A DNA stretch of 64,000 nt from Smithellaceae bacterium (GTDB lineage Bacteria > Desulfobacterota > Syntrophia > Syntrophales > Smithellaceae). The notes under the pieces were generated by a model. It saw only the letters and a program-made list of their open reading frames with translations, did no database searches and was not told where the DNA came from. The stretch spans positions 570,801-634,800 of the forward strand of contig OY821638.1 in assembly GCA_963682105.1 (NCBI GenBank). The letters are read 5' to 3'. Shown here one piece after another: positions 18,260 to 49,243 of this stretch. A program made the position numbers and the translations under genes. Within the stretch, counting starts at the first letter, position 1. The number at the start of each line of letters is the position of its first letter.

Positions 18260-18271
18260 TCTCAAGATTAA

Positions 18272-18373
18272 CCCTTTTAATTTAATCCGGCGAGATTGAA
18301 AAAGGACAGCCCCATGAAAAACATCAGCATAAAGTTTATAAAGCCTTTCTCCGCAAGGGGAAAGGCTTTTTTT
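18272..18373 (+). promoter_or_regulatory. PyrR-binding leader RNA with intrinsic terminator (pyr attenuator)
   Basis: A stem-loop CCUUUU...AAUCCGGCGAGAUU...AAAAGG (18272-18304) resembles the PyrR binding-loop consensus (ARUCCAGAGAGGCU...AAGGA). It is followed by the terminator hairpin AAAGCCTTTC / GGAAAGGCTTT plus T7 at 18340-18373, directly upstream of pyrR. Confidence 0.6.
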
Positions 18374-18384
18374 ATGCCCGATGA

Positions 18385-19023
<639 letters not shown>

Positions 19024-19046
19024 TTTTATACCAATAAGGCAAACCT

Positions 19047-29203: not shown

Positions 29204-29350
29204 TGAACGGAAGTTCCCTTTCCGTACCCAAGGACACTTTTTAAAGAGAAATTTCATTTTTTTTCTCTTCCGGACAGAATTTTTTATCAAATTTGACCGA
29301 TAACAATTTGGTAGTAATAATTCAACGATCAAACCGGGAGAAATACCTGA

Positions 29351-31651
29351 ATGAGCTTTCAGTTTAAACCTGATTCCCTGAACTCCAGCATGGACGAAAG
29401 GCTGAGGATTCGGAAAAATCTTCAGGAAATAACGAACCGCATCCATGCAGCTCAGAACATTGCTCATATTCTTGTTGAAATAAAAGACGGAATTCTCAAT
29501 CTTTTCAACGCTTCTTCCATTACCATCTATGTCGTCGACAAACATCACGATGAAATCTATTCGATGTTTCTGGCCGGCACGCAAATCAAGGAAATTCGCG
29601 TCCCGATAAGCAGCCAGAGTATCGCCGGTTATGTCGCCAATACCTACAATATCGTAAATATCGGAGATGCTTACAACCAGGCTGAACTCAAAGCCATCGA
29701 TTTCGAACTGACCTTCGACTCGAGTTGGGATAAAAAATCAGGATTCCGAACCAGACAAATTCTTGCGGCGCCAATCTTTTATGAAGATCAACTCATGGGC
29801 GTCATACAGATTCTGAACAAAAAATTCGGCGAAGGCAAATTTTCCGAAGACGAAGTCGGCCTGGCCATGGAAATTGCCGAAGTGTTAGGCGTTGCTTTTT
29901 ATAACCAGCAGCGTTTTTCTCGCCGCCGTAAAACCCGCTTCGATTTTCTGATCACCCGCGGTCTGATCAAAGAAGAAGAAATGGAAGCGGCCTGGGATGA
30001 GGCCAGGGAGCAAAAAGAGTCCATCGAACATTTTTTAATGCGTAAGCATCGAATTTCCAAGGATGACATCGGCCATTCCTTTGAAGAATTCTATCGCTGC
30101 CGCTTTATTGAATACAATGAAAAAGCGGTCATTCCCGGCGATTTAATAAAAAATTTACGAAAAGACTACCTTCGCCGGGAAGTTTGGGTCCCATTGGAAA
30201 AAATTGATAATTATATCCATGTTATTGTTGATGATCCCAACAATATCCTGAAAAGAGACGCCATCGAGAACCTGCTGAAAACAAAAAAAGTAAAATACGA
30301 CATCGCTCTGACGGATGATATTCAGAAATTTATCAATCTCTTTTTCCAAACGGGAGACACTGAAAGCTCTTTCACTGATCTACTGGGAAAACTTGACGAT
30401 GAAGACAGGCCTGCCGATGACGAGGAAGGAACAGAGGACGTCACCGAATCCGACAGCGTGATCATGCAGCTTGTCAATAAAATCATCAATGACGCTTACG
30501 CCCGCCGGGCTTCCGATATCCACATTGAACCGAATGTCGGAAAGAAAAACGTGGAAATCCGCTTCCGTGTCGACGGTGATTGCGCTGTTTATCAGACAGT
30601 GCCTTATAGTTACAAAGCCGCCATGATTTCGCGCATTAAAATCATGTCGAACCTGGACATCACCGTTAAAAGACTGCCGCAGGACGGCAAGATCAAATTC
30701 CGACGGGCTTCAGGCGATGAGATTGAGCTTCGTGTGGCGTCAATTCCCACCCAGGGCGGCGTTGAAGACGTCGTCATGCGTATTCTGGCCAAAGGTGAAA
30801 CCATGCCCCTGGAAGACATGGGCCTTTCAAAACGCAATTATAACGAACTCACCAAGACCATTACCAAACCGTACGGTATGATTCTGGTTGTGGGCCCGAC
30901 CGGTTCCGGTAAAACGACCACTCTGCATGCGGCGCTGCATCACATCAATCGTCCGGACCGGAAGATCTGGACCGCCGAAGACCCTGTGGAAATCACTCAG
31001 TATGGTTTGCGCCAGGTGCAGGTTCAGCCTAAAATCGGTTTTGATTTTGCGGCGGCCATGCGATCCTTTTTGCGCGCCGATCCGGACGTCATCATGGTCG
31101 GTGAAATGCGTGACTTTGAAACCGCTAAAACAGGTGTAGAAGCTTCTTTGACCGGCCATCTGGTCTTCAGCACCCTGCATACCAACAGCGCCCCGGAAAC
31201 CATCGTGCGCCTTCTGGATATGGGCATCGATCCTCTTAACTTCGCCGATGCATTGCTGGCCATCCTGGCTCAGCGTCTGGTTCGCACTCTTTGCAAAACC
31301 TGCAAGGAACAGTATCATCCGACCAAAGAAGAATACGATGAAATCGCGGAGAGCTACGGTGCGGAAGAATTTGCAAAACTTGGCATTCCCTATAATGACG
31401 ACTTCAAATTACATCGCCCCAAGGGATGTGATATTTGCGATAAAACCGGCTATAAAGGCAGAATGGGCATTCACGAGCTGCTGGTGGCATCGGACAATAT
31501 CAAAAGACTCATTCAGAAACATGAAGCCGTTGAGGGCCTCAGAAACCAGTCCATGTCGGAAGGCATGACCACGCTTCTCCAGGACGGTATACACAAATCC
31601 CTCGCCGGATTTACCGATTTTACGCAGGTTCGCAGAGTCTGCATCAAATAA
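29351..31651 (+). CDS. GAF domain + T2SSE_N domain + GspE/PilB-family secretion-type ATPase (catalytic motifs intact)
   Basis: 766 aa. GAF-like region at about aa 30-185 and a GspE N-terminal-type domain at about aa 195-335, then an acidic linker. Motifs present: Walker A GPTGSGKTT (30893-30919), Asp box TAEDPVE, Walker B DPDVIMVGEMRD, His box TGHLVFSTLHTN, and tetracysteine CKTC...CDIC. Confidence 0.87.
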   Translation: MSFQFKPDSLNSSMDERLRIRKNLQEITNRIHAAQNIAHILVEIKDGILNLFNASSITIYVVDKHHDEIYSMFLAGTQIKEIRVPISSQSIAGYVANTYNIVNIGDAYNQAELKAIDFELTFDSSWDKKSGFRTRQILAAPIFYEDQLMGVIQILNKKFGEGKFSEDEVGLAMEIAEVLGVAFYNQQRFSRRRKTRFDFLITRGLIKEEEMEAAWDEAREQKESIEHFLMRKHRISKDDIGHSFEEFYRCRFIEYNEKAVIPGDLIKNLRKDYLRREVWVPLEKIDNYIHVIVDDPNNILKRDAIENLLKTKKVKYDIALTDDIQKFINLFFQTGDTESSFTDLLGKLDDEDRPADDEEGTEDVTESDSVIMQLVNKIINDAYARRASDIHIEPNVGKKNVEIRFRVDGDCAVYQTVPYSYKAAMISRIKIMSNLDITVKRLPQDGKIKFRRASGDEIELRVASIPTQGGVEDVVMRILAKGETMPLEDMGLSKRNYNELTKTITKPYGMILVVGPTGSGKTTTLHAALHHINRPDRKIWTAEDPVEITQYGLRQVQVQPKIGFDFAAAMRSFLRADPDVIMVGEMRDFETAKTGVEASLTGHLVFSTLHTNSAPETIVRLLDMGIDPLNFADALLAILAQRLVRTLCKTCKEQYHPTKEEYDEIAESYGAEEFAKLGIPYNDDFKLHRPKGCDICDKTGYKGRMGIHELLVASDNIKRLIQKHEAVEGLRNQSMSEGMTTLLQDGIHKSLAGFTDFTQVRRVCIK

Positions 31652-31890
31652 TCCGCTGTCTTTTCATTTCAAATTACGTCATCGATGTTCATTGTATCTT
31701 TCTCTCGTTTGATCTTCCGCCTGAAAGATCAAACGCTGTTATCTTCTTTACATTTTGTTCAATGCTTTAAACGTTTCATTGAAAGAAAAGAGAGAAAAAG
31801 TCTTCCTTCTCACAGCACAGCATCAAGACCAACCATTATTTCCAATAACAATTCATATGCTTACAAATATCTTTTCAAGATATTCATTTC

Positions 31891-31906
31891 TGGCACGCTC
31901 TTTTCA
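31891..31906 (+). promoter_or_regulatory. Sigma-54-like promoter (TGGCAC-N5-TTTCA), copy 1
   Basis: TGGCACgctctTTTCA has one mismatch to TGGCAC-N5-TTGCA, at the -12 G. It is identical in the second repeat copy, and a conserved 47-bp block lies about 120 bp upstream. Confidence 0.5.
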
Positions 31907-31979
31907 TTAGTATAAAGGCAAATAACACGGCCATGAGGCCTTAAAAAATAAAGCAATTACCCTGAGGAGGTAACAGATC

Positions 31980-32255
31980 ATGAAAAAGACATTAGGAACC
32001 ATCGTAACGGCAGCGGCAGTGATTCTTTTAACGGCAACCTTCGGATTCGCGGAATACGCGGCGGCGGGCGCTTCCGCTTTCCCGTATTTTCAACTGGGAT
32101 GCCTGATTGTGGGCGGCCTGATCCTGGTCAGCCTGAAGAGAAAATTCAATAAAATGTACACGGCCGAAGTGGTCGGCGCTTTCGCACTCTACACGGTTTT
32201 GATGGCGCTCTTCACCAACCCCGTGATCGAAGTTGTCAAGAACATCGTAAGCTGA
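31980..32255 (+). CDS. Small membrane protein, 91 aa (signal peptide + 2 TM), unknown function, copy 1
   Basis: GAGGAGG RBS upstream. MKKTLGTIVTAAAVILLTATFGFA is signal-like. The protein is 100% identical to the product of 38977-39252, with only 2 synonymous nucleotide differences. Confidence 0.65.
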   Translation: MKKTLGTIVTAAAVILLTATFGFAEYAAAGASAFPYFQLGCLIVGGLILVSLKRKFNKMYTAEVVGAFALYTVLMALFTNPVIEVVKNIVS

Positions 32256-32307
32256 ACGGACGTTTCTTTAAAGACGCAGACAGACTTCTCGAAAGGAGGA
32301 CAGGACC

Positions 32308-32547
32308 ATGATCGCAACACATAAAATACAACCCAAGCAGTACCAAACCTTTAACGGGATACTGATGATGTCGGCCTGGAGCTTCGCCATGGTGATTGCA
32401 TCCTTTCTGTTCCTCTGGATCGGATACAAGCTCGACCAGTTCCTGGGCACCGGACCGAATTTCATGATCGGATTATTCATGCTGGCCATCTTCATCTGCG
32501 TGATGAGAATTTATCAGGAAGCGAAAAGACGAATGAAGGAACTTTAA
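32308..32547 (+). CDS. AtpZ/AtpI-family-like small membrane protein, 79 aa, copy 1
   Basis: AGGAGG RBS upstream. Two TM helices joined by a GYKLDQFLGTGPNFMI loop resemble the putative F0F1-ATPase-associated AtpZ family. There are 6 nucleotide differences from copy 2, 5 of them synonymous. Confidence 0.6.
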   Translation: MIATHKIQPKQYQTFNGILMMSAWSFAMVIASFLFLWIGYKLDQFLGTGPNFMIGLFMLAIFICVMRIYQEAKRRMKEL

Positions 32548-32578
32548 CCGCCGCACAGAAAACATGATCTGGAAAATA

Positions 32579-32618
32579 CCCCCCCTCAGGCGGCACCATG
32601 CTTGAGGGGGGATTTTTA
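32579..32618 (+). terminator. Rho-independent terminator of repeat copy 1
   Basis: Stem CCCCCCCTCA / TGAGGGGGG followed by ATTTTT. Confidence 0.7.
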
Positions 32619-32740
32619 TCAGATGTTACCATTTCAGTAAAAAAGAATACGCGCAACCTTTATGGCTTCTGTAACATTAAATTTCAAGAATAAAGGTTTG
32701 TTTCCCTTTCAAGCCGGGGGAAATTCGGTTGAAATTATTT

Positions 32741-34300
32741 TCACGACGGATAGCCCGTGATTTTTGCAATTCTTCGATAAATGGCATCCAGCGCGCCCGA
32801 GGATTTCTTATAAACATCGTTGAACAGGTTCGTATAGATCCGGTAGTGTTTTTGATCGGGCTGAAATGTTTTTCCTTTGCGCACCATCAACGCTACGGCA
32901 TCTTCTATTGAAGCATGCATTCCCGTACCCACGGCGGCATCGATGGCTGCGCCCAGAGCCGAAATTTCTGACGTTTCCATGCGCGACACAGGTAAATTAA
33001 ACATGTCGGCGGCAATCTGCACAACAACATCGCTTCGCGATCCGCCGCCGCCCACGCGGATTTCTTTAATGGGTATCCCCGTTTTTTTCTGGACGATCTC
33101 CTGCATGCGGCGCAGTTCAAAACACAACCCTTCAAATATCGCTCTGTAAATATGAGCCCGGGTATGAATGTCGCCAAACCCGATGATCGCCCCCTTGGCA
33201 TATTTGTTGTTCACCATCGGCGACCAGTACGGTTGCAGCATAAGGCCCATGGAACCTGGAGGTATGTCACGAATCACTTCATCCAACACAACCTCAGGGG
33301 CAACTCCGCGTTTTTCCGCTTCAATGGCTTCCCGGTGGCCAAATTCCTGTTTAAACCAGGTGACCATCCAGAACCCCCGGCTGATAAACATTTCTATATC
33401 CCATGCGTTGGGAACGGCCGCAGGCCATGTAAAAAAACGCAGTTGCGAATCACTGATATATTTGCGCGTGATGACTTCCATGGCCGTACCCGTTCCAAAA
33501 CTGATCACAGCTACGGAGGGATCAATGGCGCCGGCGCCGAGCAATTCACATTGTTTATCGCCGGCTCCCACCACAACGGGCAGTCCCTTCGGCAGTCCCG
33601 TTTCACGGGAAGCTTCTTCCGTAATACGGCCCAGGATTTTATCAGGAGAATAAAGCTCGACACAATGCTCGGGTCTGATGCCAAATGCGTCATATATAAA
33701 CCCGAATATCCCGCCGTACCAGTTCAAAGCCTTATAATCGAACGGCCAGATGCCCGCCATCATCCCGTAGGAATCGTGAAATTCTCCCGTAAGCTTCCGG
33801 ACAAAAAATCCGGAAGCCTGAACAAATTTGTGAGTCTTACGATATATTTCCGGTTCGTGCTTTTTGATCCAGAGAAATTTTGAATGCTTCTGCGAATAAC
33901 GGATTGCTTCATTGAGACCAATGAGATTTGTAACAAGAGTGATGGCTTTGTTCAGAGGCGGAACATCGTCTACAGTGCGTTGATCGAGCCATATGATCCC
34001 CGGTCGCAATGGCTTGCCATCCTTATCCATCGGAATGATGGTGCTGCGCTGACTGGTCAGACCGATGCCTGCAATTTCCCGCCGTTCAATATCAATCTTT
34101 GACATCAACCTGCGGCATACAATGCAAAGCTTGCTCCAGTAGTCTTCCGTATTCTGTTCAGCCCAGCCCGGCTGCAGAGAAAAATACGGCTCGTAATCCG
34201 CCTGTTCGATGGCGAGCACGGTTCCGCTACGGTCGAAAAGCACGGCTCGAACGCTCTGCGTGCCGGAGTCTATGGCAATGATATACTTTTTATCGTTCAC
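32741..34300 (-). CDS. FGGY-family carbohydrate/polyol kinase
   Basis: 519 aa. N-terminal YIIAIDSGTQSVRAVLFD and C-terminal GGGSRSD motifs match the glycerol/xylulose kinase superfamily. Confidence 0.85.
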   Translation of the reverse strand: MNDKKYIIAIDSGTQSVRAVLFDRSGTVLAIEQADYEPYFSLQPGWAEQNTEDYWSKLCIVCRRLMSKIDIERREIAGIGLTSQRSTIIPMDKDGKPLRPGIIWLDQRTVDDVPPLNKAITLVTNLIGLNEAIRYSQKHSKFLWIKKHEPEIYRKTHKFVQASGFFVRKLTGEFHDSYGMMAGIWPFDYKALNWYGGIFGFIYDAFGIRPEHCVELYSPDKILGRITEEASRETGLPKGLPVVVGAGDKQCELLGAGAIDPSVAVISFGTGTAMEVITRKYISDSQLRFFTWPAAVPNAWDIEMFISRGFWMVTWFKQEFGHREAIEAEKRGVAPEVVLDEVIRDIPPGSMGLMLQPYWSPMVNNKYAKGAIIGFGDIHTRAHIYRAIFEGLCFELRRMQEIVQKKTGIPIKEIRVGGGGSRSDVVVQIAADMFNLPVSRMETSEISALGAAIDAAVGTGMHASIEDAVALMVRKGKTFQPDQKHYRIYTNLFNDVYKKSSGALDAIYRRIAKITGYPS

Positions 34301-34437
34301 CTGCCTTCTCCAAATCTTTGCGTAAAATTAACCACAAGGGCTTCAGGACGTTTTGAATCCGGAGCGCATGAATTAACATACTAATGCGTGGTGACTTATT
34401 GATTCATGTCCGGCGGGTCGGACTTTCATCCGTCTTT

Positions 34438-36141
34438 CTACCTGCGAGTTGGAATCTCATCCAGCCCAAGCTGGCCACCCGGATTCATGATGCCGTGCGG
34501 ATCGAAGTGGCATTTTAAAGCCCTCAGTACCGCCATCTGTTCCGGTCCCAGGTGTTTTTCCATCCATGGCGCAAGCAAACGCCCCACTCCGTGATGATGG
34601 CTCAGGGTCCCGCCGTATTTCAAAATGTTGTCAATCACATCTTTCTGGAACGAGACGTATTCGCCCAGATCCATGCGGGCCAGAAAGATAAAATAAAGAT
34701 TGGCACCCTGCGGATAGAAATGAGAGGCATGCGTCATGCAGACGGTTCCCGGCCGCTGTTTAACGAATGCCCGGACTCCCTGGTGCACCCGATGGATGTT
34801 GTCCCACGTCACCGACGCTTCCAGAGTGTCGGTAAATATCCCGAAGTCATTCAGATCCTCGCGCATGTACGGCTCCGTATATCGGGTTTGCTCCCACTTG
34901 CGCGCCGCATAACCGGTCAGCGACATCGCACCATGTTCGCGTGCGATTTTTTTGATTCTCTTCGCAACAAGGCTTGCATAATCCCCATCCCCCTCAACAT
35001 TGCCCAGGCTGAGACATCGTTCCATGGGCCTGAAGCCCCGTCGCCTCAGAAATGCATCAACAAAGCCCGGCACGCCGTACAGTTTCAGTCCTCTTTCCGT
35101 CTCCTCCGGGTCTGAAATACGATAGATAGCGGGCAGGCCGAATTCACCCTGCATGATTTCACGGCTTGCATTCACCGCCGCCTCCCAGTTCGGATACATA
35201 AATCCGAATCGTCTTGTGTTTTCCGGCATATGCCGGAAAATCCTCATCGTCACTTCGACCAGAATGCCAAAAACGCCTTCCGACCCTTTCATAATATCGT
35301 TGACTTTGGGTCCCGTAGCCGCAGCCGGATATTCAAGCGTTTTGAAAGTTCCGACCGGCGTGACGTATTCCTGACTGAAAACGATATCGCTGGCATCGCC
35401 ATAATAAGTGGATGCCTGTCCCGAACCCAGGGTCAGAACCCAGCCGCCGACTGTTGAATATTCGAATGATTGAGGGAAATGACCGCATGTATAGCGGCGC
35501 TTGCAACCAAAGAGTTCCGGAGCACGGTTGAGCGCATCTTCATAAGCGGGTCCGAACATGCCCGGTTGGACTCTTGCGGTCTGGTTGAGCTCATTTATCT
35601 CCAGAAGCTTGTTCATATGCGTGCTCATGACCAGCGTCACACCGCCTTTATAAGGCCGGCAGCCAAAGTTGACCGAAGATCCTCCGCTGAAAACGGTAAC
35701 GGGAATTTTTTCCTTGTTGCAATAATTCACCACCCTCTGCAGATCCCGCTTGTCACGGGGATGAAGGACTATGTCGCATACTTCGCGGATGATGCCCTTT
35801 CGCAGCTCCAGGATTTCCTCCGACGTTTTTGCGGATGAGTATTTCACACGGGAATAGTCATCAAGGGCCGAGTTTTCTTCGCCCACCATTGCGGTAAGCG
35901 CCGCGATCTGTTCCATTTTGAGAGTTGAGGGGCGGCTGAGAACAACCTTCTCGTTGCCTTCAGATTGTTTCTGCGAAAAATCGGCTTCAGACATGCCGAA
36001 TTCTTCCTGCATCATTTTGACCCAGGCATCGCTGGGGTGTTTAAACCGGTCAGGGTTGCCATACTTGACAATGGAACGATATGTTCCGGGCGCCGGAGCC
36101 TGATGCGACCAGTTTGGCCGGAAACTTCTTGATTTCGGCAT
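34438..36141 (-). CDS. FAD-linked oxidase, alkyl-dihydroxyacetonephosphate synthase (AGPS)-like
   Basis: 567 aa with an FAD_binding_4 region (PVTVFSGGSSVNFG), then HFPQSFEYSTVGGWVLTLGSGQASTYYG, which resembles the AGPS signature. The C-terminus is an FAD-oxidase domain (SHHHGVG). Confidence 0.78.
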   Translation of the reverse strand: MPKSRSFRPNWSHQAPAPGTYRSIVKYGNPDRFKHPSDAWVKMMQEEFGMSEADFSQKQSEGNEKVVLSRPSTLKMEQIAALTAMVGEENSALDDYSRVKYSSAKTSEEILELRKGIIREVCDIVLHPRDKRDLQRVVNYCNKEKIPVTVFSGGSSVNFGCRPYKGGVTLVMSTHMNKLLEINELNQTARVQPGMFGPAYEDALNRAPELFGCKRRYTCGHFPQSFEYSTVGGWVLTLGSGQASTYYGDASDIVFSQEYVTPVGTFKTLEYPAAATGPKVNDIMKGSEGVFGILVEVTMRIFRHMPENTRRFGFMYPNWEAAVNASREIMQGEFGLPAIYRISDPEETERGLKLYGVPGFVDAFLRRRGFRPMERCLSLGNVEGDGDYASLVAKRIKKIAREHGAMSLTGYAARKWEQTRYTEPYMREDLNDFGIFTDTLEASVTWDNIHRVHQGVRAFVKQRPGTVCMTHASHFYPQGANLYFIFLARMDLGEYVSFQKDVIDNILKYGGTLSHHHGVGRLLAPWMEKHLGPEQMAVLRALKCHFDPHGIMNPGGQLGLDEIPTRR

Positions 36142-36177
36142 TTGCGATTCCCCTCGTTTTTTGTCTTCGATTTTTTC

Positions 36178-37824
36178 TCACTGCACCGGGATCTTTAACA
36201 GATCGTTTGTCTGCCCGATTTCTTTCTCCATTCTTTCACGGCTCCATCCCAACATGTCAGCAAGCTTTGCGGCCACCTTTCTCAATACGCCTTCACCGGG
36301 ATTTCCCAACGTGCCGATGCCCGTCCTGCGCATGATGACGTCCGGCAATGTGCGCGCCATTTCAAAGCGTACGGCGTAGACCACTTGCGCCATGATCTCT
36401 CCGTCGTCGTTCAACCGTTCGGCGAGCGTTCGATCCTGAAGCGCCAGTTTCAGAATATCTTTGTATTCAGTCCCGTAATTGCGTGCAAGATATTCCAGTG
36501 TGGACGGGCTGAACCCGTCGTTATACCTGCTCGCTTCAAGCAGAAAAGATTTCATGTCCTTTATCTCACAGCCACAGAGGTAATGTTTCTTTGTAATGCT
36601 TTTGCCGGGCTTGCGTCCCATTTTTTTCTCAATCAGCGTCACACAAGTCTCGGCAAGATTGCGGCTGGTTGTGTATTTTCCTCCTTCCACGGTCAGAAGG
36701 CCGTCCAGTCCATCAGTTGCATTGTCGTAGATCTCGTACTTACGTGAACAGGTGTAAGTTTCTTCAGTCTGTTCTTCCAGAAGGGGCCGGAGCCCGCCGT
36801 AGGTATGCTTTACATCCGAGTAATTCAGGGTTCCATCGCCGAATGACGCATTGATGTCGGCGATCAGTTCCAGAATGCTCTGCTTTGTAACCCTGTATTC
36901 GTCCGGATCACCTGTATACGGCTTATCCGTGGTCCCGATGAGGGTATGCCTGCGCCAGGGAATGAGAAAAAAATGCCTGCCGGTCGAAGTCATGGATCCA
37001 ACCACATAGTGACCGGATATCAACTTTTTGTCCGTGATGATATGAATGCCTTCCGATCTTCTCAATGCGCCGCATGCATTGACCGTTGATTCGGTCATCC
37101 CCAGAATAATATCCGCCCAGGGCCCGCCGCAGTTGACCGTTATTTTGGCGTCTATAGTACCGTTTTTCCCCGAAAGCAGATCTTTGACCGTTACCCCCTT
37201 AACCTTGTTTCGGCCGTCGATATTAAATCCTTCCACTTTCGTATAGTTTGCTACTTTTGCTCCATGAGACACAGCGGATTTGATAAATGCAAGCGTCAGT
37301 CTTTCGGGGAAAATACTGAGACAATCATAATAAATCGATCCCCCGGTTAGCCCCAGGGACCTGACATTCGGCTCGCATGCCAGAACATCCTCTCTCGATA
37401 TCGTCCGGTGCGAAGGAATTTTCTTGCTTTTGTCCCATGTCCGGTTCTTGTCATAGGACAATGCGTCATACATCAGCATGCCCATTTTGACCGCCCACTT
37501 GTTATTCTTTAACGGAGTCCCCGTGTGCATAATCAAAATCGGCTGCGGGTAAACATAATTCGGGGCAATGTTTTCCAGAATGCGGCGCTCTCTGAGCGAT
37601 TCGCGAACGAGCCCGATTTCTCCGTTGGCGAGATAACGCAGTCCGCCGTGAATGAGCTTGGACGTTACGGCGGATGTCGCCCAGGAAAAATCCCGCTTTT
37701 CCACCAGCGCCACTTTCAATCCGCGGGATGCCGCTTCATAGGCTGTCGAAACTCCGGTGATACCACCGCCAATGACAAGAACATCGAAATGTTCGCCCGC
37801 GTACTGCTCGATAAAACGCTGCAT
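36178..37824 (-). CDS. FAD-dependent glycerol-3-phosphate dehydrogenase/oxidase family protein (GlpD-like)
   Basis: 548 aa with the N-terminal dinucleotide fold DVLVIGGGITGVSTAYEAASRG, a GGKYTTSR motif and a C-terminal helical extension. Confidence 0.85.
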   Translation of the reverse strand: MQRFIEQYAGEHFDVLVIGGGITGVSTAYEAASRGLKVALVEKRDFSWATSAVTSKLIHGGLRYLANGEIGLVRESLRERRILENIAPNYVYPQPILIMHTGTPLKNNKWAVKMGMLMYDALSYDKNRTWDKSKKIPSHRTISREDVLACEPNVRSLGLTGGSIYYDCLSIFPERLTLAFIKSAVSHGAKVANYTKVEGFNIDGRNKVKGVTVKDLLSGKNGTIDAKITVNCGGPWADIILGMTESTVNACGALRRSEGIHIITDKKLISGHYVVGSMTSTGRHFFLIPWRRHTLIGTTDKPYTGDPDEYRVTKQSILELIADINASFGDGTLNYSDVKHTYGGLRPLLEEQTEETYTCSRKYEIYDNATDGLDGLLTVEGGKYTTSRNLAETCVTLIEKKMGRKPGKSITKKHYLCGCEIKDMKSFLLEASRYNDGFSPSTLEYLARNYGTEYKDILKLALQDRTLAERLNDDGEIMAQVVYAVRFEMARTLPDVIMRRTGIGTLGNPGEGVLRKVAAKLADMLGWSRERMEKEIGQTNDLLKIPVQ

Positions 37825-37832
37825 AACGGCCT

Positions 37833-38543
37833 CTATTTCTTTCTTTTGGCCAGATCTTTTTTTACCGCCTCTTCTGCGTAATTAAGCACATCCAGCATAA
37901 TCCGCCGTGCGACTTCAGGTTTTTTACGTTTTATGGCATCGAGAATATCCCGGTGGAATTTTCTTGACCGATCGAGATTCCGTTCATCTTCAAAATAAAG
38001 GTAACTGTATTCCTGGTTAAAATGATTAAAGAAATTAAGCATAATGATGTAAACGATATTGCCGCCGGCATGAGCAATGACCTCATGAACCTTCATGTCT
38101 TTTTCCGGCCAGTTCAGACGCTTATCCGCAATCACCTGCTCCAGCCGTGAAATGTCATCGGAAGATGCTCTCTGAGCCGCCAGATAAGCCATTTCCGGCA
38201 CAATGATCCGTCGAACTTCGAGAATATCGCAGATGGATTTACCGCCCTCTTCAATCCTGCAGGCCGTTTTGATAAGGTCGAAATTGCTGCTTTCAAGATA
38301 ATTCTTTACATATAAACCGTCGCCGTGGCGCACATCAATCAATTCCAGGTGTTCCAGTTTCCTCAATGCCTCCCGAACCGTGGTCCGATTGACCTTGAAC
38401 GATTCTGCAAGATCCCGTTCGGTGGGCAGTTTGCCGCCGGGCGCAATACTTCCGGACAAAATCTGTCTTTGAATGATGTCTACTATTTCTTCGCTGAGAC
38501 GCGATCGGGTTACTGACTGGGCAAATACGACGGTGGCAGGCAT
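37833..38543 (-). CDS. GntR-family (FadR/FCD subfamily) transcriptional regulator
   Basis: Start at MPATVVF, preceded by AAGGAG. It has a winged HTH (KLPTERDLAESFKVNRTTVREALRKLE) followed by an FCD-like helical domain. The track ORF extends to 38558. Confidence 0.82.
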   Translation of the reverse strand: MPATVVFAQSVTRSRLSEEIVDIIQRQILSGSIAPGGKLPTERDLAESFKVNRTTVREALRKLEHLELIDVRHGDGLYVKNYLESSNFDLIKTACRIEEGGKSICDILEVRRIIVPEMAYLAAQRASSDDISRLEQVIADKRLNWPEKDMKVHEVIAHAGGNIVYIIMLNFFNHFNQEYSYLYFEDERNLDRSRKFHRDILDAIKRKKPEVARRIMLDVLNYAEEAVKKDLAKRKK

Positions 38544-38572
38544 GTTGTTCTCCTTCATGCGTATTGCAAATT

Positions 38573-38603
38573 ATTGGTTCAGTGAACCAGTGGTTCAACC
38601 AAT
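38573..38603. promoter_or_regulatory. Nested palindromes, candidate GntR operator
   Basis: ATTGGTTCAGTGAACCAGTGGTTCAACCAAT contains TGGTTCAgTGAACCA (38575-38589), ACCAgTGGT and TGGTTcAACCA. It lies 30-60 bp upstream of the regulator start. Confidence 0.5.
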
Positions 38604-38887
38604 ATTCCTTTTTTGAACATTTGTCAAGGGGGGGGGATTGGAATCGAATCGAAACAACATGAATGCATTTGACGAGAATTTAAGATGAAAGAAAACCAAA
38701 TAGGATCCCCGCCTGTTCAACACCTTTTTTATTTTTATGAATTTTCACATTTCGTTTAATGCTTAAACGTTTCATTGAAAGAAAAGAGAGAATAAGACAT
38801 TCCCGCGGTTTGCCCCACACTGTCATTAATCGTTATTTGTATCGTTATATCTTATATTTACAACTATCTTCCAAACGTCTGCATTTC

Positions 38888-38903
38888 TGGCACGCTCTTT
38901 TCA
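38888..38903 (+). promoter_or_regulatory. Sigma-54-like promoter (TGGCAC-N5-TTTCA), copy 2
   Basis: Identical to the 31891-31906 element. Confidence 0.5.
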
Positions 38904-38976
38904 TTAGTATAAAGGCAAATAACACGGCCATGAGGCCCTAAAAAATAAAACAATTACCCCGAGGAGGTAACAGATC

Positions 38977-39252
38977 ATGAAAAAGACATTAGGAACCATC
39001 GTAACGGCAGCGGCAGTGATTCTTTTAACGGCAACCTTCGGATTCGCGGAATACGCGGCGGCGGGCGCTTCCGCTTTCCCGTATTTTCAACTGGGATGCC
39101 TGATTGTGGGCGGCCTGATCCTGGTCAGCCTGAAGAGAAAATTCAATAAAATGTACACGGCCGAAGTGGTCGGCGCTTTCGCTCTCTACACGGTTTTGAT
39201 GGCGCTCTTCACCAACCCCGTGATCGAAGTTGTCAAAAACATCGTAAGCTGA
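38977..39252 (+). CDS. Small membrane protein, 91 aa, copy 2
   Basis: Protein identical to the product of 31980-32255. Confidence 0.65.
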   Translation: MKKTLGTIVTAAAVILLTATFGFAEYAAAGASAFPYFQLGCLIVGGLILVSLKRKFNKMYTAEVVGAFALYTVLMALFTNPVIEVVKNIVS

Positions 39253-39304
39253 ACGGACGTTTCTTTAAAGACGCAGACAAACTTCTCGAAAGGAGGACAG
39301 GACC

Positions 39305-39544
39305 ATGATCGCAACACATATAATACAACCCAAGCAGTACCAAACCTTTAACGGGATACTGATGATGTCGGCCTGGAGCTTCGCCATGGTGATTGCTTCG
39401 TTCCTGTTCCTCTGGATCGGATACAAGCTCGACCAATTCCTGGGCACCGGACCGAATTTCATGATCGGATTGTTCATGCTGGCCATCTTCATCTGCGTGA
39501 TGAGAATTTATCAGGAAGCGAAAAGACGAATGAAGGAACTTTAA
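39305..39544 (+). CDS. AtpZ/AtpI-family-like small membrane protein, 79 aa, copy 2
   Basis: One amino-acid difference (K6I) from the product of 32308-32547. Confidence 0.6.
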   Translation: MIATHIIQPKQYQTFNGILMMSAWSFAMVIASFLFLWIGYKLDQFLGTGPNFMIGLFMLAIFICVMRIYQEAKRRMKEL

Positions 39545-39574
39545 CCGCCGCACAGCAAACATGATCTGGAAAAT

Positions 39575-39615
39575 CCCCCCCCTCAAGCGTCACCATGTTT
39601 GAGGGGGGTTTCTTG
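39575..39615 (+). terminator. Rho-independent terminator of repeat copy 2
   Basis: Stem CCCCCCCCTCAA / TTGAGGGGGG followed by a T-rich tract. It abuts the stop of the convergent DUF218 gene. Confidence 0.65.
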
Positions 39616-39620
39616 TTTTA

Positions 39621-40217
39621 TCAAGCCCAGAGCGAATAAAGCATAAACCAGGATATCTTCAAATATTCACGCCAGACTTTTTTCCAGTCGGTCGGCTTTA
39701 ACTGCCATATATTCCGAGGAGCCGCTTCGTAAGGAGTCGGCGAGAAATAATGTTTTCCGTCAATGCCGAATACTCTGGTCACAATCATTTGAATGCGGCG
39801 CATATGATAGGGGGAGCTTACAAAGATTGCCGTTTTTTTCCCGTAAAGATCCATGGTCTTTTTAGCATCCAGCAATTCCAGATGGGTGTCTTCAAAGTAA
39901 TAAGGAGCATAAGAGTTGTTTTTCCTGTAAATGTTGTTGGGGTCCGTTTTATTTTGCAGGTTTTTGATGACGCCCTGATCGATAAAATAAATTTTATGGT
40001 AAGCAGGGATAATAAGATAATCCGATAGCCCCATTTGCATCAGGTCCTGAGCATGGCGGTGGCGGGCGCTAAAATCGGGACCCAGCAAAAGAACAATCGC
40101 ATCCGATTTTTCACATGGCGTTTTATAAAGCAAAAATCCGGGCGCGGCAAATACTCCGACTGCAATAATAAGAACCGGAACAATCAGAATCCGCGCGATT
40201 TTTTTAATAATCTTCAC
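39621..40217 (-). CDS. YdcF/DUF218 (ElyC-like) family protein
   Basis: 198 aa with an N-terminal TM anchor. The IVLLLG and FVSSPYHMRR motifs are typical of DUF218. Confidence 0.7.
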   Translation of the reverse strand: MKIIKKIARILIVPVLIIAVGVFAAPGFLLYKTPCEKSDAIVLLLGPDFSARHRHAQDLMQMGLSDYLIIPAYHKIYFIDQGVIKNLQNKTDPNNIYRKNNSYAPYYFEDTHLELLDAKKTMDLYGKKTAIFVSSPYHMRRIQMIVTRVFGIDGKHYFSPTPYEAAPRNIWQLKPTDWKKVWREYLKISWFMLYSLWA

Positions 40218-40227
40218 TAAAATGTCC

Positions 40228-40256
40228 TTGACAATACAACTAATTATTTATATCAA
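40228..40256 (+). promoter_or_regulatory. Candidate sigma-70 promoter for the kinase/NtrC pair
   Basis: TTGACA (40228-40233), a 17-nt spacer, then TATCAA (40251-40256). Confidence 0.4.
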
Positions 40257-40431
40257 AACGACGATATCGCTAAAGATTTAACCCATGTTGAAGAGGTACC
40301 TGTGTTTAATGCCCGGATAAAGCAAATACGCCGTCGTCAGAAATGACTTTTACTAAAAATATTTTAGACAGCTTTCCTTCGTAAATTCAATATAAATTAT
40401 TTATTTTATTTGCAAAGGTTTTGTAACAACC

Positions 40432-41508
40432 ATGTATGATGCCACAACAGAAAGACGCCGCAATTCCGATCACGATAAAAGCATGGATATTTCGCTTTAT
40501 AAAAGCATTATGGAAACGATTGATCTGGGCATTGTCATTCTCGGCATTAAAAGAAGAGACCTCATCTTCAAGAACCGGTTTGCTTCCGAAATTTTCCAGC
40601 ACAATCCGAATCTTCTGGAATACCGAAATCTTCTGTCCTTGCTGTTGACGGACTATGGCAGCAAGCCTGAAGAAGAAATTTTTGGGAAAAATTACACACT
40701 CCGCTTTAAAAATCGTCTTCTGGGCTACACGCCATACATGATTTCCGAAAGCTTCATCATGATTATCATCCGCGACATTACGGAAAGAAGTCGTCTGGAA
40801 TCCATCGCGGAAGCCGTAAATTCAATGGATAACATCGGTTATGTTTTCTCCGGCATCCGGCACGAACTGGGCAATCCCATCAATTCCATAAAAATGACGT
40901 TGAGCGTGCTTAAACGAAACTTAAGCGAATATTCTCCGGCCGCCGTTGAAAAATTTGTCGACCGCGCTATGACGGAAATTTCGCGTGTTGAATTCCTGCT
41001 TCAGGCGCTGAAAAGCTTCAGCATCTTCGAAAATCCGGAAATTCAAACCGTTCAGATCGATGATTTTCTGACGCGTTTCATCGCCCTGATCAGCAATGAC
41101 TTACAGCAGTCCGGGATAAAGATCGGTAAAACGGTTGAATCAAACGTCAAGACCGTCAGTGCTGATCCCCGCCTGCTGCATCAGGTGATGATGAATCTGA
41201 TCACCAACGCCTCAGACGCTCTTACCGGTAAGGAAAACAGAAAGATCAACATCCGGGCGCTCAAACACGACGGTTTAGTCGCCATCGTTGTTGATGACAA
41301 CGGATGTGGAATGTCCAAAGAGGCTCAGGCCAACCTGTTTAAACCTTTTTTCACAACAAAGAATCGGGGAACAGGCCTGGGATTGATGATCACCCTGAAG
41401 ATGGTGACGCTCATGAAGGGCAACATGGAAATTAAAAGCATCAAAGACAAGGGAACGCGAGTAGCCGTCATTTTGCCCCTGGGAGCCAGGCCCAATGCTA
41501 AAAGTTAA
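40432..41508 (+). CDS. Cytoplasmic sensor histidine kinase (PAS-like + HisKA + HATPase_c)
   Basis: H box FSGIRHELGNPIN, N box MMNLITNASDA, G1 DDNGCGM and G2 GTGLGL are present, with no TM helices. The start is uncertain (alternative Met at 40483). Confidence 0.82.
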   Translation: MYDATTERRRNSDHDKSMDISLYKSIMETIDLGIVILGIKRRDLIFKNRFASEIFQHNPNLLEYRNLLSLLLTDYGSKPEEEIFGKNYTLRFKNRLLGYTPYMISESFIMIIIRDITERSRLESIAEAVNSMDNIGYVFSGIRHELGNPINSIKMTLSVLKRNLSEYSPAAVEKFVDRAMTEISRVEFLLQALKSFSIFENPEIQTVQIDDFLTRFIALISNDLQQSGIKIGKTVESNVKTVSADPRLLHQVMMNLITNASDALTGKENRKINIRALKHDGLVAIVVDDNGCGMSKEAQANLFKPFFTTKNRGTGLGLMITLKMVTLMKGNMEIKSIKDKGTRVAVILPLGARPNAKS

Positions 41509-42844
41509 AAGAAAAATTCTGATTATCGACGACAATGACATTTTTTGCGAATCCGTCAAAGACCTGCTTACTGATCAAAACACGGACATCCTAACCGCCA
41601 ACACGGGTAAAGACGGCCTGCAACTGTGCACTGAAAACAAAATTGACGTTGTTATTCTGGACCAGAAGCTTCCCGACACACAGGGTGTGACGTTGTGTCC
41701 TTCCATCCTGAAACAAAACGAACAGACCAAAATCATTTTTGTCACCGCTTACCCGAGCTTCGCCAATGCCATAGACGCCATCAAAGTCGGGGCGCACGAT
41801 TATCTTTCCAAACCTTTCGAAATGGCGGAACTGGAATTGACCATCAAGCAGGCTTTCCGCACGCAGGAACTGGAAAAAACCGAGCAGATTCAGAATTACC
41901 AGAATATCCGGGAAAGCGAGGAGAATGATCTGATAGCCGGCGAAGGCGCATTTGATGAGATCAAACGCATGATTAATCTGGCGGCTGACAGCGATGCGCC
42001 TGTTCTCATTACCGGAGAAACCGGAACAGGCAAGAACGTTGTGGCGCGTGCCATTCACTATAAAAGCTCGCTTCCGGCCAGGCTTTTCCTGACAGCCAAT
42101 TGCGCCGCCTTTCCGGAAAACCTCATCGAGGCGGAATTGTTCGGATCGGAAAAGGGAGCCTTCACCGGCGCCAGCGCGACCCGCAAAGGCATATTCGAAC
42201 TGGCTGAGGGAGGAACGCTGTTACTCGATGAAATCGGCTCAATGCCCATTCATCTGCAGTCCAAGCTTTTAGGCGTCCTGGAAGAAAAAAAAATCCGGCG
42301 CATCGGCAGTGAAACCGTTAAACCCATCAATGTTCGTGTCATTGCCGCGGCCAATAACGACCTGGAAGAAGCCACTAAGGACAAAACATTTCGAAACGAT
42401 CTCTATTACCGCCTCAGCGTGATTCGCATTCATCTCCCGCCGTTGCGCGAAAGAAAAGAAGACATCCCCAAACTGTGCGAATATTTCATAGCAAAAATGT
42501 CCCGCGATGTGAATGTTCACCTCTCCGATGCGGAGGTGTCCCGGCTTATGGACTATGAGTGGCCCGGAAACGTCCGTGAATTGAAAAACGTCATTGAGCG
42601 TTCGCTGATCATTCAGCGAGGTCAACCTCTTCGACCTTCCCTGCTTTTGCGAACCGGCGTCACGCCTGCGGCAAACGCTTCCGCCGGACAGGACGATGAT
42701 GAAATCGTACCTCTTGAAGACACGGAAAAAAAATGCATCAGCCAGGCTCTGAAAAAATATAACGGCAACTACTCCCAATCCGCCAGGGCGCTGGGTATTT
42801 CCCTTTCCACACTCAAAAGAAAAGTAAAATCCTATCATCTTTAA
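41495..42844 (+). CDS. Sigma-54-dependent response regulator (NtrC family: REC + AAA+ + Fis-type HTH)
   Basis: 449 aa. REC domain (ILIIDDN, VVILDQKLPD), Walker A GETGTGKN, sigma-54 contact loop GAFTGA, Walker B LLLDEIG, and a C-terminal HTH SQSARALGISLSTLKRK. It overlaps the kinase gene by 14 nt. Confidence 0.92.
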   Translation: MLKVKRKILIIDDNDIFCESVKDLLTDQNTDILTANTGKDGLQLCTENKIDVVILDQKLPDTQGVTLCPSILKQNEQTKIIFVTAYPSFANAIDAIKVGAHDYLSKPFEMAELELTIKQAFRTQELEKTEQIQNYQNIRESEENDLIAGEGAFDEIKRMINLAADSDAPVLITGETGTGKNVVARAIHYKSSLPARLFLTANCAAFPENLIEAELFGSEKGAFTGASATRKGIFELAEGGTLLLDEIGSMPIHLQSKLLGVLEEKKIRRIGSETVKPINVRVIAAANNDLEEATKDKTFRNDLYYRLSVIRIHLPPLRERKEDIPKLCEYFIAKMSRDVNVHLSDAEVSRLMDYEWPGNVRELKNVIERSLIIQRGQPLRPSLLLRTGVTPAANASAGQDDDEIVPLEDTEKKCISQALKKYNGNYSQSARALGISLSTLKRKVKSYHL

Positions 42845-42978
42845 AAAGCTGTTGTGATACAAATCGCCTTTTCGATCAAAATGAATCATTCAGCTTGAAC
42901 GTAAACCAGGGAAATTGTTTCCAGATATCCAACACAAGTAATTGATATAACTCATTTACACAAAATACATTATTATTT

Positions 42979-42994
42979 GGGCACACCCTTTGCT
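42979..42994 (+). promoter_or_regulatory. Sigma-54 promoter (GGGCAC-N5-TTGCT)
   Basis: tGGGCACaccctTTGCTt has the GG and GC dinucleotides at canonical spacing. It lies 135 bp downstream of the NtrC-type gene and about 95 bp upstream of the REC gene ATG. Confidence 0.65.
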
Positions 42995-43089
42995 TGGTTG
43001 TCTTAGAATCGTCTATTCATTAAGACTTAAGCGATTTGGGGATTTCCTTAAAAAAGACTGAAGTTCTAAAAGAAGATAAGTTGAATGAG

Positions 43090-43542: not shown

Positions 43543-43573
43543 TATCAGGCCCCAAAAATAAAAGGGATATTTC

Positions 43574-46174: not shown

Positions 46175-46177
46175 GAA

Positions 46178-49239: not shown

Positions 49240-49243
49240 AAAC

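Follow-up and report, generated by a model that had tools for sequence, protein, structure and literature searches.

Segments lying between long direct repeats of the kind formed by nifH and F7 in Rhizobium etli can amplify as well as be lost, and the nifH promoter is sigma-54-dependent. In R. etli, recombination between identical nifH copies deletes a large stretch of the symbiotic plasmid, gene conversion at these repeats is documented, and the F7 direct repeats of pSym, 871 bp long and 98% identical, have a size and identity at which repeats are recombinogenic (PMC10932983). By the criteria of PMC6053082, concerted evolution is recognized where paralogues within a genome are closer to each other than to syntenic orthologues, also at synonymous or non-coding sites, and where discrete conversion tracts occur. 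The window analysed here, 64,000 nt of a Smithellaceae genome, contains a pair of direct repeats around a catabolic operon, and we find that both repeats belong to a module family spread through the genome and evolving in concert, and do not represent a private local duplication.

Repeat search and alignment placed the two copies, both on the forward strand and each 866 bp (about 0.87 kb), at 31747–32612 (U1) and 38743–39608 (U2), their starts lying 6997 bp apart, or 6996 bp in the upstream block. The initial annotation had described a direct repeat of about 0.86 kb, in one orientation and offset by 6997 bp; its ends and offset were recovered, and its start moves about 4 nt further left, to 31747 and 38743. 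The same module ends were returned by blastn against the module copies of loci L085, L173 and L001. Exact identity, which that annotation had left to be computed, is 92.7% overall with three gap columns (862 and 861 nt aligned; longest identical run 222 nt) and is far from uniform: 92% in the upstream block (31751–31800), 51.8% in the spacer (31801–31884), 96.8% in the promoter and 5′ untranslated region (31885–31979), 99.3% across the gene for the 91-aa protein, 98.1% between the two genes, 97.5% across the gene for the 79-aa protein and 90.8% around the terminator. The core, comprising promoter, both genes and terminator, is 97.5% identical; 18 core positions differ, as do the outer flanks.

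Each repeat makes up a complete expression module of its own, here termed U, and every part first read from the sequence (upstream block, sigma-54-like promoter, 91-aa gene, 79-aa gene and C-rich terminator) was located, with a variable spacer between block and promoter. The upstream block holds two ATTTYRTTNAA-like motifs, in U1 (31752–31783) at 31752–31762 and 31773–31783, 21 nt apart, and in U2 (38749–38779) at 38749–38759 and 38769–38779; it is kept across the modules of many genomes, whereas the adjoining spacer is not, and may serve a sigma-54 activator as its enhancer (UAS). The U1 spacer is of a GspE1-side type; that of U2 (38797–38881), of a GntR-side type, departs from U1, and likewise from either L001 copy, at 40 of 84 sites. 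A sigma-54-type promoter, TGGCACG-N4-TTTCA, reads TGGCACGCTCTTTTCA in both copies (31891–31906 and 38888–38903), and the same element precedes p91 in 62 of 86 copies, mostly 55–89 nt before the ATG and with varying bases in the N4-5 stretch, suggesting that the modules are sigma-54-dependent. The first gene, p91 (31980–32255 and 38977–39252), encodes the same 91-aa small membrane protein in both copies, with a signal-like N terminus followed by helices; it reached no curated cut-off in Pfam or NCBIfam, and its 1797 homologues at 80–97% identity belong to Smithellaceae/Syntrophaceae wherever named. The second gene, p79 (32308–32547 and 39305–39544), specifies a membrane protein of 79 aa that scores 36.7 bits with Pfam PF09527 (cut-off 26.6), the AtpZ / ATPase_gene1 family, and differs by one residue between copies (K6I). 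Both genes are under purifying selection, seven codon differences between U1 and U2 being synonymous and one non-synonymous; across genomes the p91 protein is 80–97% identical and its coding DNA only about 75%. Predicted C-rich intrinsic terminator hairpins close the modules at 32580–32611 (13 pairs, then a T-run) and 39577–39608.

Repeats commonly cause misassembly, although nothing specific to this locus points to a false duplication, and the chance of one is negligible: the copies differ at the 18 core positions and across the 40-site spacer and have unlike flanks, and a second, independent long-read assembly from this species (L001) gives the same architecture, with 96.5% identity across 20.3 kb. 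In the short-read data for the species, contigs L002, L086 and L087 end inside or beside the module, the pattern expected of a true repeat.

Between the modules, on the reverse strand, lie, first in the cassette, a GntR/FCD-family regulator that is divergent from U2 (37833–38558; PF00392, PF07729), a GlpD-like FAD-dependent dehydrogenase (36178–37824; PF01266, PF16901; 301 bits against the NCBIfam glycerol-3-phosphate dehydrogenase model, below its cut-off of 360), an FAD-linked oxidase resembling alkyl-DHAP synthase (34438–36141; PF01565, PF02913), the nearest solved relatives of which are alkyl-DHAP synthases (2uuu, E 2e-67), and, last in the cassette, an FGGY-family carbohydrate kinase (32741–34300; FGGY_N/FGGY_C) whose top NCBIfam match, XylB, stays under that family's cut-off. 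These Pfam, NCBIfam and structure matches agree with the GntR, GlpD-like, AGPS-like and FGGY assignments made initially, and the cassette is a conserved operon of sugar-alcohol type. The repeat pair does sit between two GspE-like paralogues, as had been stated. One of its immediate neighbours is GspE1, a GAF-MshEN-T2SSE ATPase (29351–31651, forward strand) that borders the resident module site on the left; a DUF218 protein (39621–40217, reverse strand) borders it on the right, and both flanks are conserved. Beyond the DUF218 gene, a histidine kinase and an NtrC-type sigma-54 activator (40432–42844, forward strand), a pair also found beside this module site in L047, L081, L091 and L001, are a candidate activator of the modules.

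A genome scan returned 283 stretches that encode a p91 relative. The complete chromosome OY820932.1 carries at least four module copies, and a conspecific genome (ctg34083l) carries three, with p79 identical in all. U is thus reiterated in Smithellaceae (Smithella-like syntrophs), each genome having at least 3–5 copies dispersed over several conserved sites of the chromosome, whose neighbours are unrelated (an Mla-like ABC operon, KAS/ACP genes, PanC). The p91 coding sequences from different site types within one genome are a median of 97.1% identical (n = 43), those from the same site type in different genomes 74.9% (GspE/DUF218, n = 134) or 78.8% (Mla, n = 135), and long-read assemblies contain within-genome repeats of 500–1040 bp at 97–100%, non-coding parts included. 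Copies at about 97–100% within genomes, against about 75–79% at the same site between genomes, therefore evolve in concert, and the near-identity of U within a genome is kept by RecA-type gene conversion. When both copies from each of two strains are aligned together, the informative sites of the core group the paralogues in six cases, the orthologues in one and neither in one, whereas the flanks of the window and L001 copies are purely orthologous. The copy-2 spacer is of copy-1 type, that is, converted, in strain L001 and unconverted in the window; a third copy, at a distance of about 480 kb, has a tract of variants in common with L001 copy 2. A subfamily of modules of the KAS-neighbour type stays outside this homogenization.

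Sharp-ended, nearly identical copies scattered over each genome would also be left by a non-autonomous mobile element that had transposed to both sides of the cassette, but we regard this as very improbable. The modules occupy the same syntenic sites in species that are about 25% divergent, yet are 97–100% identical within genomes, a combination that requires gene conversion and not recent transposition. U has no terminal inverted repeats or target-site duplications, a search of viral contigs and plasmids returned no match to it, and no transposase-family gene was called around the module copies examined; moreover, selection on both module genes is purifying.

The initial annotation had proposed comparing syntenic loci, and more than ten related genomes proved to have GspE1–module–DUF218 with a single module and no cassette. 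The L091 locus (GspE1 93% identical in amino acids) is collinear with the window to 32250 and then again from 39627, and GlyS–GspE1–module synteny recurs in L021, L037, L040, L054, L055, L062, L079, L088, L091 and L180. In another species (L085), the arrangement U–FGGY–DUF362–FADox–GlpD–GntR–U, with a repeat of 881 bp at 98.98% and the cassette oriented relative to the modules as in the window, occupies another module site, flanked by HDOD/PanC genes on one side and PLP-decarboxylase/CBS genes on the other; in the window's own species (L173) the orthologous HDOD...CBS neighbourhood contains one U and lacks the cassette. The GntR–GlpD-like–AGPS-like–FGGY operon is otherwise widespread and U-free. 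Among 80 metagenome cassette loci searched by tblastn with p91 and p79, a module was found on L093 only, which is the cassette contig of the window's own species and the same record as L087; the other 79 returned none, and the closely related cassette of OY820932.1 has no U beside it. U accompanies the cassette in only three species, adjoining gntR in all three and present on both sides in at least two, the L083 contig ending in FGGY so that only its GntR side is visible.

This recurrence beside gntR in three related species, together with the conserved orientation of the cassette, could mean that the whole arrangement is an old functional cluster held by selection, in which the pathway makes use of the small membrane proteins, the outer flanks differing through unrelated rearrangements. 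We consider this unlikely, if the most serious of the alternatives: the 79 cassette loci of other organisms are all module-free, as is the OY820932.1 cassette, modules stand at many sites beside unrelated genes, and the single-module state is common at both the GspE1 and HDOD/CBS sites. Predicted regulation is also separate, sigma-54 for the modules and GntR for the cassette, which occurs module-free.

A local tandem duplication of the two-gene unit, with the cassette later inserted exactly between the copies, was one of the two origins first suggested. Same orientation and similar ends fit this geometry, and a core identity of about 98% can be read as recent duplication, but near-identity carries no information on age under gene conversion, and an 85-nt spacer at 52% lies between an enhancer block at 92–97% and a core at 97.5%. 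Because two modules at a different site in L085 enclose this cassette too, and in the same orientation, the coincidence of duplication and insertion would be needed twice. The insertion machinery is absent as well: a search for terminal inverted repeats, a target-site duplication or a neighbouring tRNA gave nothing, and no gene called within or beside the block hit a transposase or integrase family. The U2 spacer, finally, resembles that of the cassette-adjacent L083 module rather than that of U1. The dispersed family, the non-uniform divergence and the same composite at another site speak against this origin, which we judge improbable.

We instead favour, as the probable origin, integration of the cassette together with one module into a resident module by homologous recombination, both copies having recombined since. 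The ancestral locus would have been GlyS–GspE1–U–DUF218–HK–NtrC, with one U and no cassette. A segment made of the operon and one U would then have arrived in the window's species, where the incoming U would have recombined with the resident one by a Campbell-type single crossover or an equivalent exchange, automatically giving U–cassette–U in direct orientation, and the two copies would have gone on recombining. The spacers are compatible with such a crossover in the core, which predicts that U2 should match L083 and U1 should match L180. Against a shuffling null of 51 ± 3% (maximum 58.7%), the best match of the U2 spacer is the GntR-adjacent module of L083, at 65%, and the U1 spacer is 70% identical to that of the GspE1-adjacent module of L180, although the GspE1-U-SRAP flank of L180 could be an assembly join inside the homogenized p91 region. 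The U1 spacer is also 98% identical to the L173 spacer, and its 58% match to the GspE1-adjacent L091 module falls within the null. Spacers thus seem partly to track the left flank, the similarities being modest (65–70% at best).

The history of the cassette is discordant with that of its flanks: between the window and L001, the flanks are 98–100% identical (about 99%), the region 31400–39800 is 83–97% identical and the cassette about 92%, and three alleles are mosaic. The junctions between U and cassette measure 124 nt in the window and 14 nt in L085 on the FGGY side, and about 100–190 nt and 480 nt, respectively, on the GntR side, so a single common translocatable unit would be old or not identical in the two. 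A chain of other U-mediated rearrangements, with no circular intermediate, could lead to the same end state. The recombining composite unit that the initial annotation offered as its second origin gains support from the single-copy, cassette-free syntenic loci and from gene conversion between the copies; its mode of integration and its capacity for excision or amplification are predicted from sequence comparison.

Like the nifH/F7 amplicons of R. etli, the locus has long direct repeats in one replicon, of nearly the F7 dimensions (866 bp, with a core identity of 97.5%). Here, however, the repeat is a two-gene operon for small membrane proteins on the chromosome of uncultured syntrophs, and deletion or amplification is suggested by comparative states alone. 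As in tufA/tufB, rrn operons, psbA and amo/hao, copies of U within a genome are closer to each other than to their syntenic orthologues, non-coding parts included, and show conversion tracts; the mechanism of gene conversion has reportedly been studied in tuf (PMC5485169). Unlike those paralogues, the homogenized unit includes an enhancer-like block, promoter and terminator, is present in at least three copies and has a second subfamily, the KAS-neighbour type, outside homogenization; the U family is not among the genes named in the excerpted text of PMC6053082. With composite transposons and IS26-type translocatable units the locus shares a cassette between two direct copies of one element, and, as with IS26-type units, a circle of cassette and one element could insert beside another element copy. 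U nevertheless lacks the transposase, terminal inverted repeats and target duplications of those systems, and movement of U and cassette would depend on host homologous recombination alone. In Bacillus, a connection of AtpZ with Mg2+ uptake has been described (Hicks et al. 2003, cited by PMC3543383). The p79 protein scores above the PF09527 threshold, like the AtpZ / ATPase_gene1 proteins of atp operons, but no atp gene adjoins any module in the loci annotated here; in contrast to its atp-operon relatives, p79 is reiterated and paired with p91 behind a sigma-54-type promoter.

The direct repeat described in the initial annotation is present where its two copies had been placed, as a 300-nt ungapped family 6997 bp apart together with a 34-nt block 6996 bp apart. 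Global alignment of the intervals proposed there (862 versus 861 nt) gave 92.7% identity, the longest uninterrupted match being 222 nt, and comparison with other copies of the module set the true ends of the repeat at 31747–32612 (copy 1) and 38743–39608 (copy 2). Between the copies, identity is 92% in the upstream block (31751–31800; 97% in its inner 34 nt), 51.8% in the adjoining spacer (31801–31884), 96.8% in the promoter and 5′ untranslated region (UTR), 99.3% in the gene for a 91-aa small membrane protein (p91), 98.1% between the two genes, 97.5% in the gene for a 79-aa AtpZ-family membrane protein (p79) and 90.8% in the terminator region. The coding changes comprise seven synonymous and one non-synonymous substitution (K6I in p79), which indicates that the two genes are intact in either copy and subject to purifying selection. 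As a substrate for recombination, the pair consists of 866-bp repeats in direct orientation with a core identity of 97.5%, and its longest run provides enough uninterrupted identity for RecA recombination. A tandem duplication later split by insertion, one of the origins first offered for this geometry, predicts uniform divergence and no donor copies; instead, the spacer is 52% identical against 97.5% for the core, and a third copy with an identical p79 lies in the conspecific genome ctg34083l. Such a duplication leaves unexplained the 52% spacer, the additional conspecific copies and the second composite at another site described below.

Each module has, at its left, a conserved block with two ATTTYRTTNAA-like motifs (31752–31762 and 31773–31783, 21 nt apart, in copy 1; 38749–38759 and 38769–38779, 20 nt apart, in copy 2), followed by a variable, A/T-rich spacer, a sigma-54-type element, TGGCACG-N4-TTTCA (31891–31906 and 38888–38903), and a conserved 5′ UTR with the terminal sequence GGAGGTAACAGATCATG. 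In copy 1, p91 occupies 31980–32255 and p79 occupies 32308–32547; a 13–14-pair G+C hairpin followed by a T-run forms the terminator (32580–32611 and 39577–39608). Aligning 23 copies drawn from many genomes revealed conservation of the two-motif block, the promoter and the 5′ UTR, but not of the spacer. Among family members with sufficient upstream sequence, 62 of 86 have the same −24/−12-type element, mostly 55–89 nt 5′ of the ATG, and the 4–5 bases between its half-sites vary across members. Judged against the sigma-54 promoter criterion (GG at −24 and GC at −12 at fixed spacing, TGGCACG-N4-TTGCW), the module element retains the GG and the spacing but carries TC rather than GC at −12. Sigma-54 control also calls for an enhancer-binding protein and an upstream enhancer about 80–150 bp away. 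The conserved two-motif block, about 108–139 nt 5′ of the promoter, is a candidate enhancer, and an NtrC-type sigma-54 activator (41495–42844) is encoded with its kinase 0.8 kb downstream of copy 2. This kinase–activator pair is kept beside the same module site in other species, and we infer that the NtrC-type protein is a candidate activator of the module. The 5′ UTR of p91 also contains a small conserved hairpin, CACGGCC-ATGA-GGCC (31921–31945 and 38918–38942), which is found in the window's clade and is absent from many other family members; an Rfam scan of 29000–42000 (E ≤ 1), this hairpin included, returned no RNA family.

The two copies belong to a larger family. A scan of species-representative genomes yielded 283 stretches encoding a p91 relative, with at least four copies of the module dispersed in the complete chromosome OY820932.1 and three to five in several long-read metagenome-assembled genomes (MAGs). 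The module recurs divergent from an Mla-like ABC operon, in the gap between the ATPase gene gspE1 and the DUF218 gene, next to PanC/AdoHcyase genes and next to KAS/ACP genes. Copies of the p91 coding sequence in one genome at different site types have a median nucleotide identity of 97.1% (n = 43; 56% of pairs at 97% or more), compared with medians of 74.9% (GspE/DUF218, n = 134) and 78.8% (Mla, n = 135) for copies in different genomes at the same site type. In CAWEQT, CAVQAL and CAWETF, the copy at the GspE site matches the one at the Mla site at 100%. The blocks shared within a genome (blastn) span 500–1040 bp at 97–100% identity, including the upstream region, the intergenic stretch and the terminator; in CAWEQT, for instance, the block runs for 693 bp at 100%, in CAVQAL for 784 bp at 99.9% and in OY820932.1 for 1038 bp at 98.8%. 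Synonymous and non-coding positions share in this likeness, so selection on the proteins does not by itself account for it. The family thus shows the greater likeness of paralogues than of syntenic orthologues that PMC6053082 takes as a mark of concerted evolution, and it combines three such marks: paralogues more alike than orthologues, likeness at synonymous and non-coding positions, and a conversion-tract or incongruence signal.

Some members of the family depart from this pattern or carry local rearrangements. The p91 subfamily next to KAS/ACP genes (L056, L042, L044, L048 and others) has 72–80% nucleotide identity to the main type in the same genome and escapes homogenisation. In OY820932.1, the gap between p91 and p79 is longer by about 170 bp in two copies than in a third (L005/L008, 10274–10501). 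In MAG MFD02979.bin.2.126 (L066, 11930–16217), a module copy adjoins a 4.3-kb inverted repeat of 91.7% identity carrying duplicated adenosylhomocysteinase genes.

Recombination between the copies and between strains was evident from comparison with a conspecific strain distinct from that of the window (L001, from a 5.17-Mb long-read contig; 96.5% identity over 20.3 kb), which has the same module–cassette–module structure. In a four-way alignment of two copies from two strains, the informative core sites comprise six at which copies of the same strain agree, one at which orthologues agree and one with a third pattern; in the two flanks, all informative sites (35 and 38) follow the orthologous pattern. 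The copy 2 spacer of the window differs from that of copy 1 at 40 of 84 sites, and the copy 2 spacer of L001 is of the copy 1 type (98.8%); the spacer has therefore been converted in L001 and not in the window, so that the ends of the conversion tract differ between strains. A third module (L173) lies 480 kb away in the L001 genome and has a run of ten variants in common with copy 2 of L001, across the 3′ end of p91 and the intergenic stretch. Between the window and L001, identity is 98–100% in 28964–30563 and 40164–49253, and 83–97% over about 31400–39800, with the cassette at about 92%. In some 400-nt bins a third allele (L086/L087) matches the window at 99–100%, and in another it lies closer to L001, which indicates that the alleles are mosaic. 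The divergent block and the mosaic alleles together show that the module-bounded block has been exchanged among strains by recombination, independently of its flanks. Within 32613–39608, divergence between the two strains is greatest in the GlpD-like gene (83–88% nucleotide identity in 36964–37763; 88% for the protein), which suggests an imported allele or diversifying exchange; the neighbouring two-component genes are 99–100% identical.

Single-copy, cassette-free loci, which the initial annotation had proposed to look for, were found both at the GspE1 site and at the L173 site. In other Smithellaceae (L021, L037, L040, L054, L062, L079 and L081) the order is GlyS–GspE1–module–DUF218(–HK–NtrC–RR–GspE2), with one module and no cassette, and L024 and L047 show the DUF218 side of this arrangement. 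L091 (GspE1 93% identical in amino acids) is collinear with the window to 32250 and again from 39627, with p79 lost; the DUF218 gene there begins 58 nt after p91 (12601–12934 of that locus). In two independent assemblies (L088 and L089; GspE1 95%), GspE1 and the module are followed by a CBS/GerE–CBS–CBS flank; in OY820932.1 (L092; GspE1 86%) no module follows GspE1; and in L180, whose left flank is 98.6% identical to the window, GspE1 and the module are followed by a 252-aa/SRAP flank. These varied right flanks mark the module after GspE1 as a synteny breakpoint.

Two further features of this region were observed. In L180 (ERZ27276616 k141_3705984, 4454–7562), GlyS–GspE1–module runs on into a 252-aa/SRAP/229-aa flank, as found to the right of the cassette-adjacent module of a third species (L083), and its module is a mosaic in which the spacer is of a third type, p91 matches at 99% and p79 matches at about 78%; this locus either reflects a true recombination event or was joined during assembly within the homogenised p91 region. 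In the window, MshEN/T2SSE ATPase paralogues (29351–31651, GspE1, and 43574–46174; 46% amino acid identity over the C-terminal half) bracket the two modules, the cassette and the DUF218–HK–NtrC–RR genes, and the pair with the intervening two-component genes is conserved in L091, L047 and L081. The first paralogue has a GAF domain and the second has no Pfam GAF match; about 125 residues of the latter between MshEN and T2SSE (approximately aa 348–473) match no Pfam family.

A composite of the same kind occurs at a different chromosomal site. On a 501-kb long-read contig from another species (L085), a cassette about 82% identical in nucleotides to that of the window stands in the order HDOD–module–FGGY–DUF362–FADox–GlpD–GntR–module–PLP decarboxylase–HD–HAD–CBS/GerE–CBS–CBS. 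Its modules, 8521 bp apart, are direct repeats of 881 bp that differ by 9 mismatches (98.98%), and they have the same orientation relative to the cassette as in the window. The orthologous neighbourhood in the window species (L173) contains one module and no cassette, with HDOD and CBS genes 76.7% and 77.8% identical in nucleotides to those of L085. In L083, the cassette is followed on its GntR side by a module and a 251-aa/SRAP/cytochrome bd flank, and its other end is cut off by the contig end.

The cassette itself comprises minus-strand genes for a GntR/FCD regulator, a GlpD-like dehydrogenase, an FAD-linked oxidase whose nearest solved relatives are alkyl-DHAP synthases (2uuu, E = 2e-67) and an FGGY kinase, and its GC content (0.48–0.53) does not set it apart from its surroundings. 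The operon is widespread, often with a DUF362 gene, and 80 metagenome loci were retrieved at 59–95% identity. Tblastn with p91 and p79 detected a module on one of these loci, L093, and on none of the 79 others; L093 shares its record with L087 and is the cassette contig of the window's own species. The cassette of OY820932.1 is free of modules on both sides, a search for module remnants beside it found none, and it adjoins defence-type genes: its neighbours (L084, OY820932.1 4317789–4339492, at 13657–21704) include a PLD/SNF2 helicase, an ORF6N protein, an MmeI-type restriction–modification enzyme and a ThsB–TIR protein, and the neighbourhood looks like a defence island. Many cassettes lack modules, and modules also occur at unrelated sites, which contradicts the view that modules and cassette form a functional cluster kept by selection.

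The comparative evidence supports the earlier idea of a recombination unit within a broader frame than a local repeat pair: the two copies belong to a repeated sigma-54-type module family whose members evolve in concert and mark points of rearrangement in Smithellaceae. As the simplest account, we propose that GspE1–module–DUF218 was the resident state and that a segment carrying the operon and one module, for example a circle from a module–cassette–module arrangement elsewhere or incoming DNA, would have recombined with the resident module. The crossover would yield module–cassette–module in direct orientation, and the cores would since have been homogenised by gene conversion. Under this model, sequence to the left of the crossover should stay linked to its left flank. 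The best match of the copy 2 spacer is the gntR-adjacent module of L083 (65%; shuffle null 51 ± 3, maximum 58.7), and that of the copy 1 spacer is the GspE1-adjacent module of L180 (70%; same null). The copy 1 spacer is 58% identical to the GspE1-adjacent spacer of L091, within the null, and the L180 and L091 spacers are 65% alike; the spacers fit the predicted linkage in part. Direct repeats in this range of length and identity are known to recombine: in Rhizobium etli, deletions arise through 871-bp copies that are 98% identical, and both crossover and conversion occur at the reiterated nifH genes (PMC10932983). From comparative surrogates, namely single-module empty sites and the composite at a second site, we infer that the module–cassette–module block may be excised or amplified.

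An assembly artefact is excluded by the independent assemblies and the copy-specific differences. The conserved syntenic positions contradict a transposon-like element, as do the missing terminal inverted repeats and target duplications and the finding that no gene called around the examined modules belongs to a transposase family. Two specific classes were also rejected. For a composite transposon or IS-bounded unit, the only open reading frames in each repeat are p91 and p79, with no transposase and no terminal inverted repeats, and no target-site duplication was found in the 15 nt outside each module end. For an integrase-mediated island, the called genes across the locus include no integrase family (Pfam), and the sole tRNA in the window is at 56174–56249.

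The p79 protein matches Pfam PF09527 (AtpZ/ATPase_gene1; 36.7 bits versus a cut-off of 26.6), but the modules are not in or beside an atp operon: no atp gene adjoins a module in any annotated locus or appears among the recurrent neighbour clusters. p91 has 1797 homologues at 80–97% identity, with the names given being Smithellaceae, Smithella or Syntrophaceae (the p91 proteins of L085, L001 and OY820932.1 do not appear in this set), and no curated family; Pfam at E ≤ 10 gave only a sub-threshold Bax1-I match (17 bits versus 34), from which the JGI label 'FtsH-binding integral membrane protein' probably stems. NCBIfam returned no match for p91, p79 or the DUF218 protein. An AlphaFold2 model of p91 (28 homologues) has three or four helices at a mean pLDDT of 65, too weak for a fold search. 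No match was found for the p91 alignment in viral contigs or for module DNA in PLSDB plasmids (distant mode), and literature searches on Smithella gene conversion and on AtpZ with sigma-54 yielded nothing relevant to the module. p91 and the AtpZ-family protein form a previously undescribed, highly conserved and reiterated pair with a sigma-54-type promoter, which may matter for membrane physiology in Smithellaceae.

Taken together, the module offers a clear natural example, in uncultured syntrophs, of two linked processes: a functional multi-copy unit is homogenised by gene conversion, and the same unit supplies portable homology through which gene order is reshuffled and a catabolic-type operon comes to lie at different places on the chromosome. 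In practical terms, the 0.9-kb repeats break short-read Smithella MAG assemblies, and contigs that cross them may be mis-joined. A more speculative reading, which we consider improbable, is that modules act as genome-wide docking sites, with module-bounded, operon-sized blocks excised, re-inserted at other modules and swapped between strains by host homologous recombination, and with the modules retained through selection on a dosage-sensitive, sigma-54-controlled pair of small membrane proteins. If true, this would parallel, in slow-growing syntrophs, the cassette traffic of integrons or IS26-type elements, but without a recombinase. The phenomenon is of a known kind, combining concerted evolution with direct-repeat-bounded recombination units, and its novelty lies in the family and the lineage.
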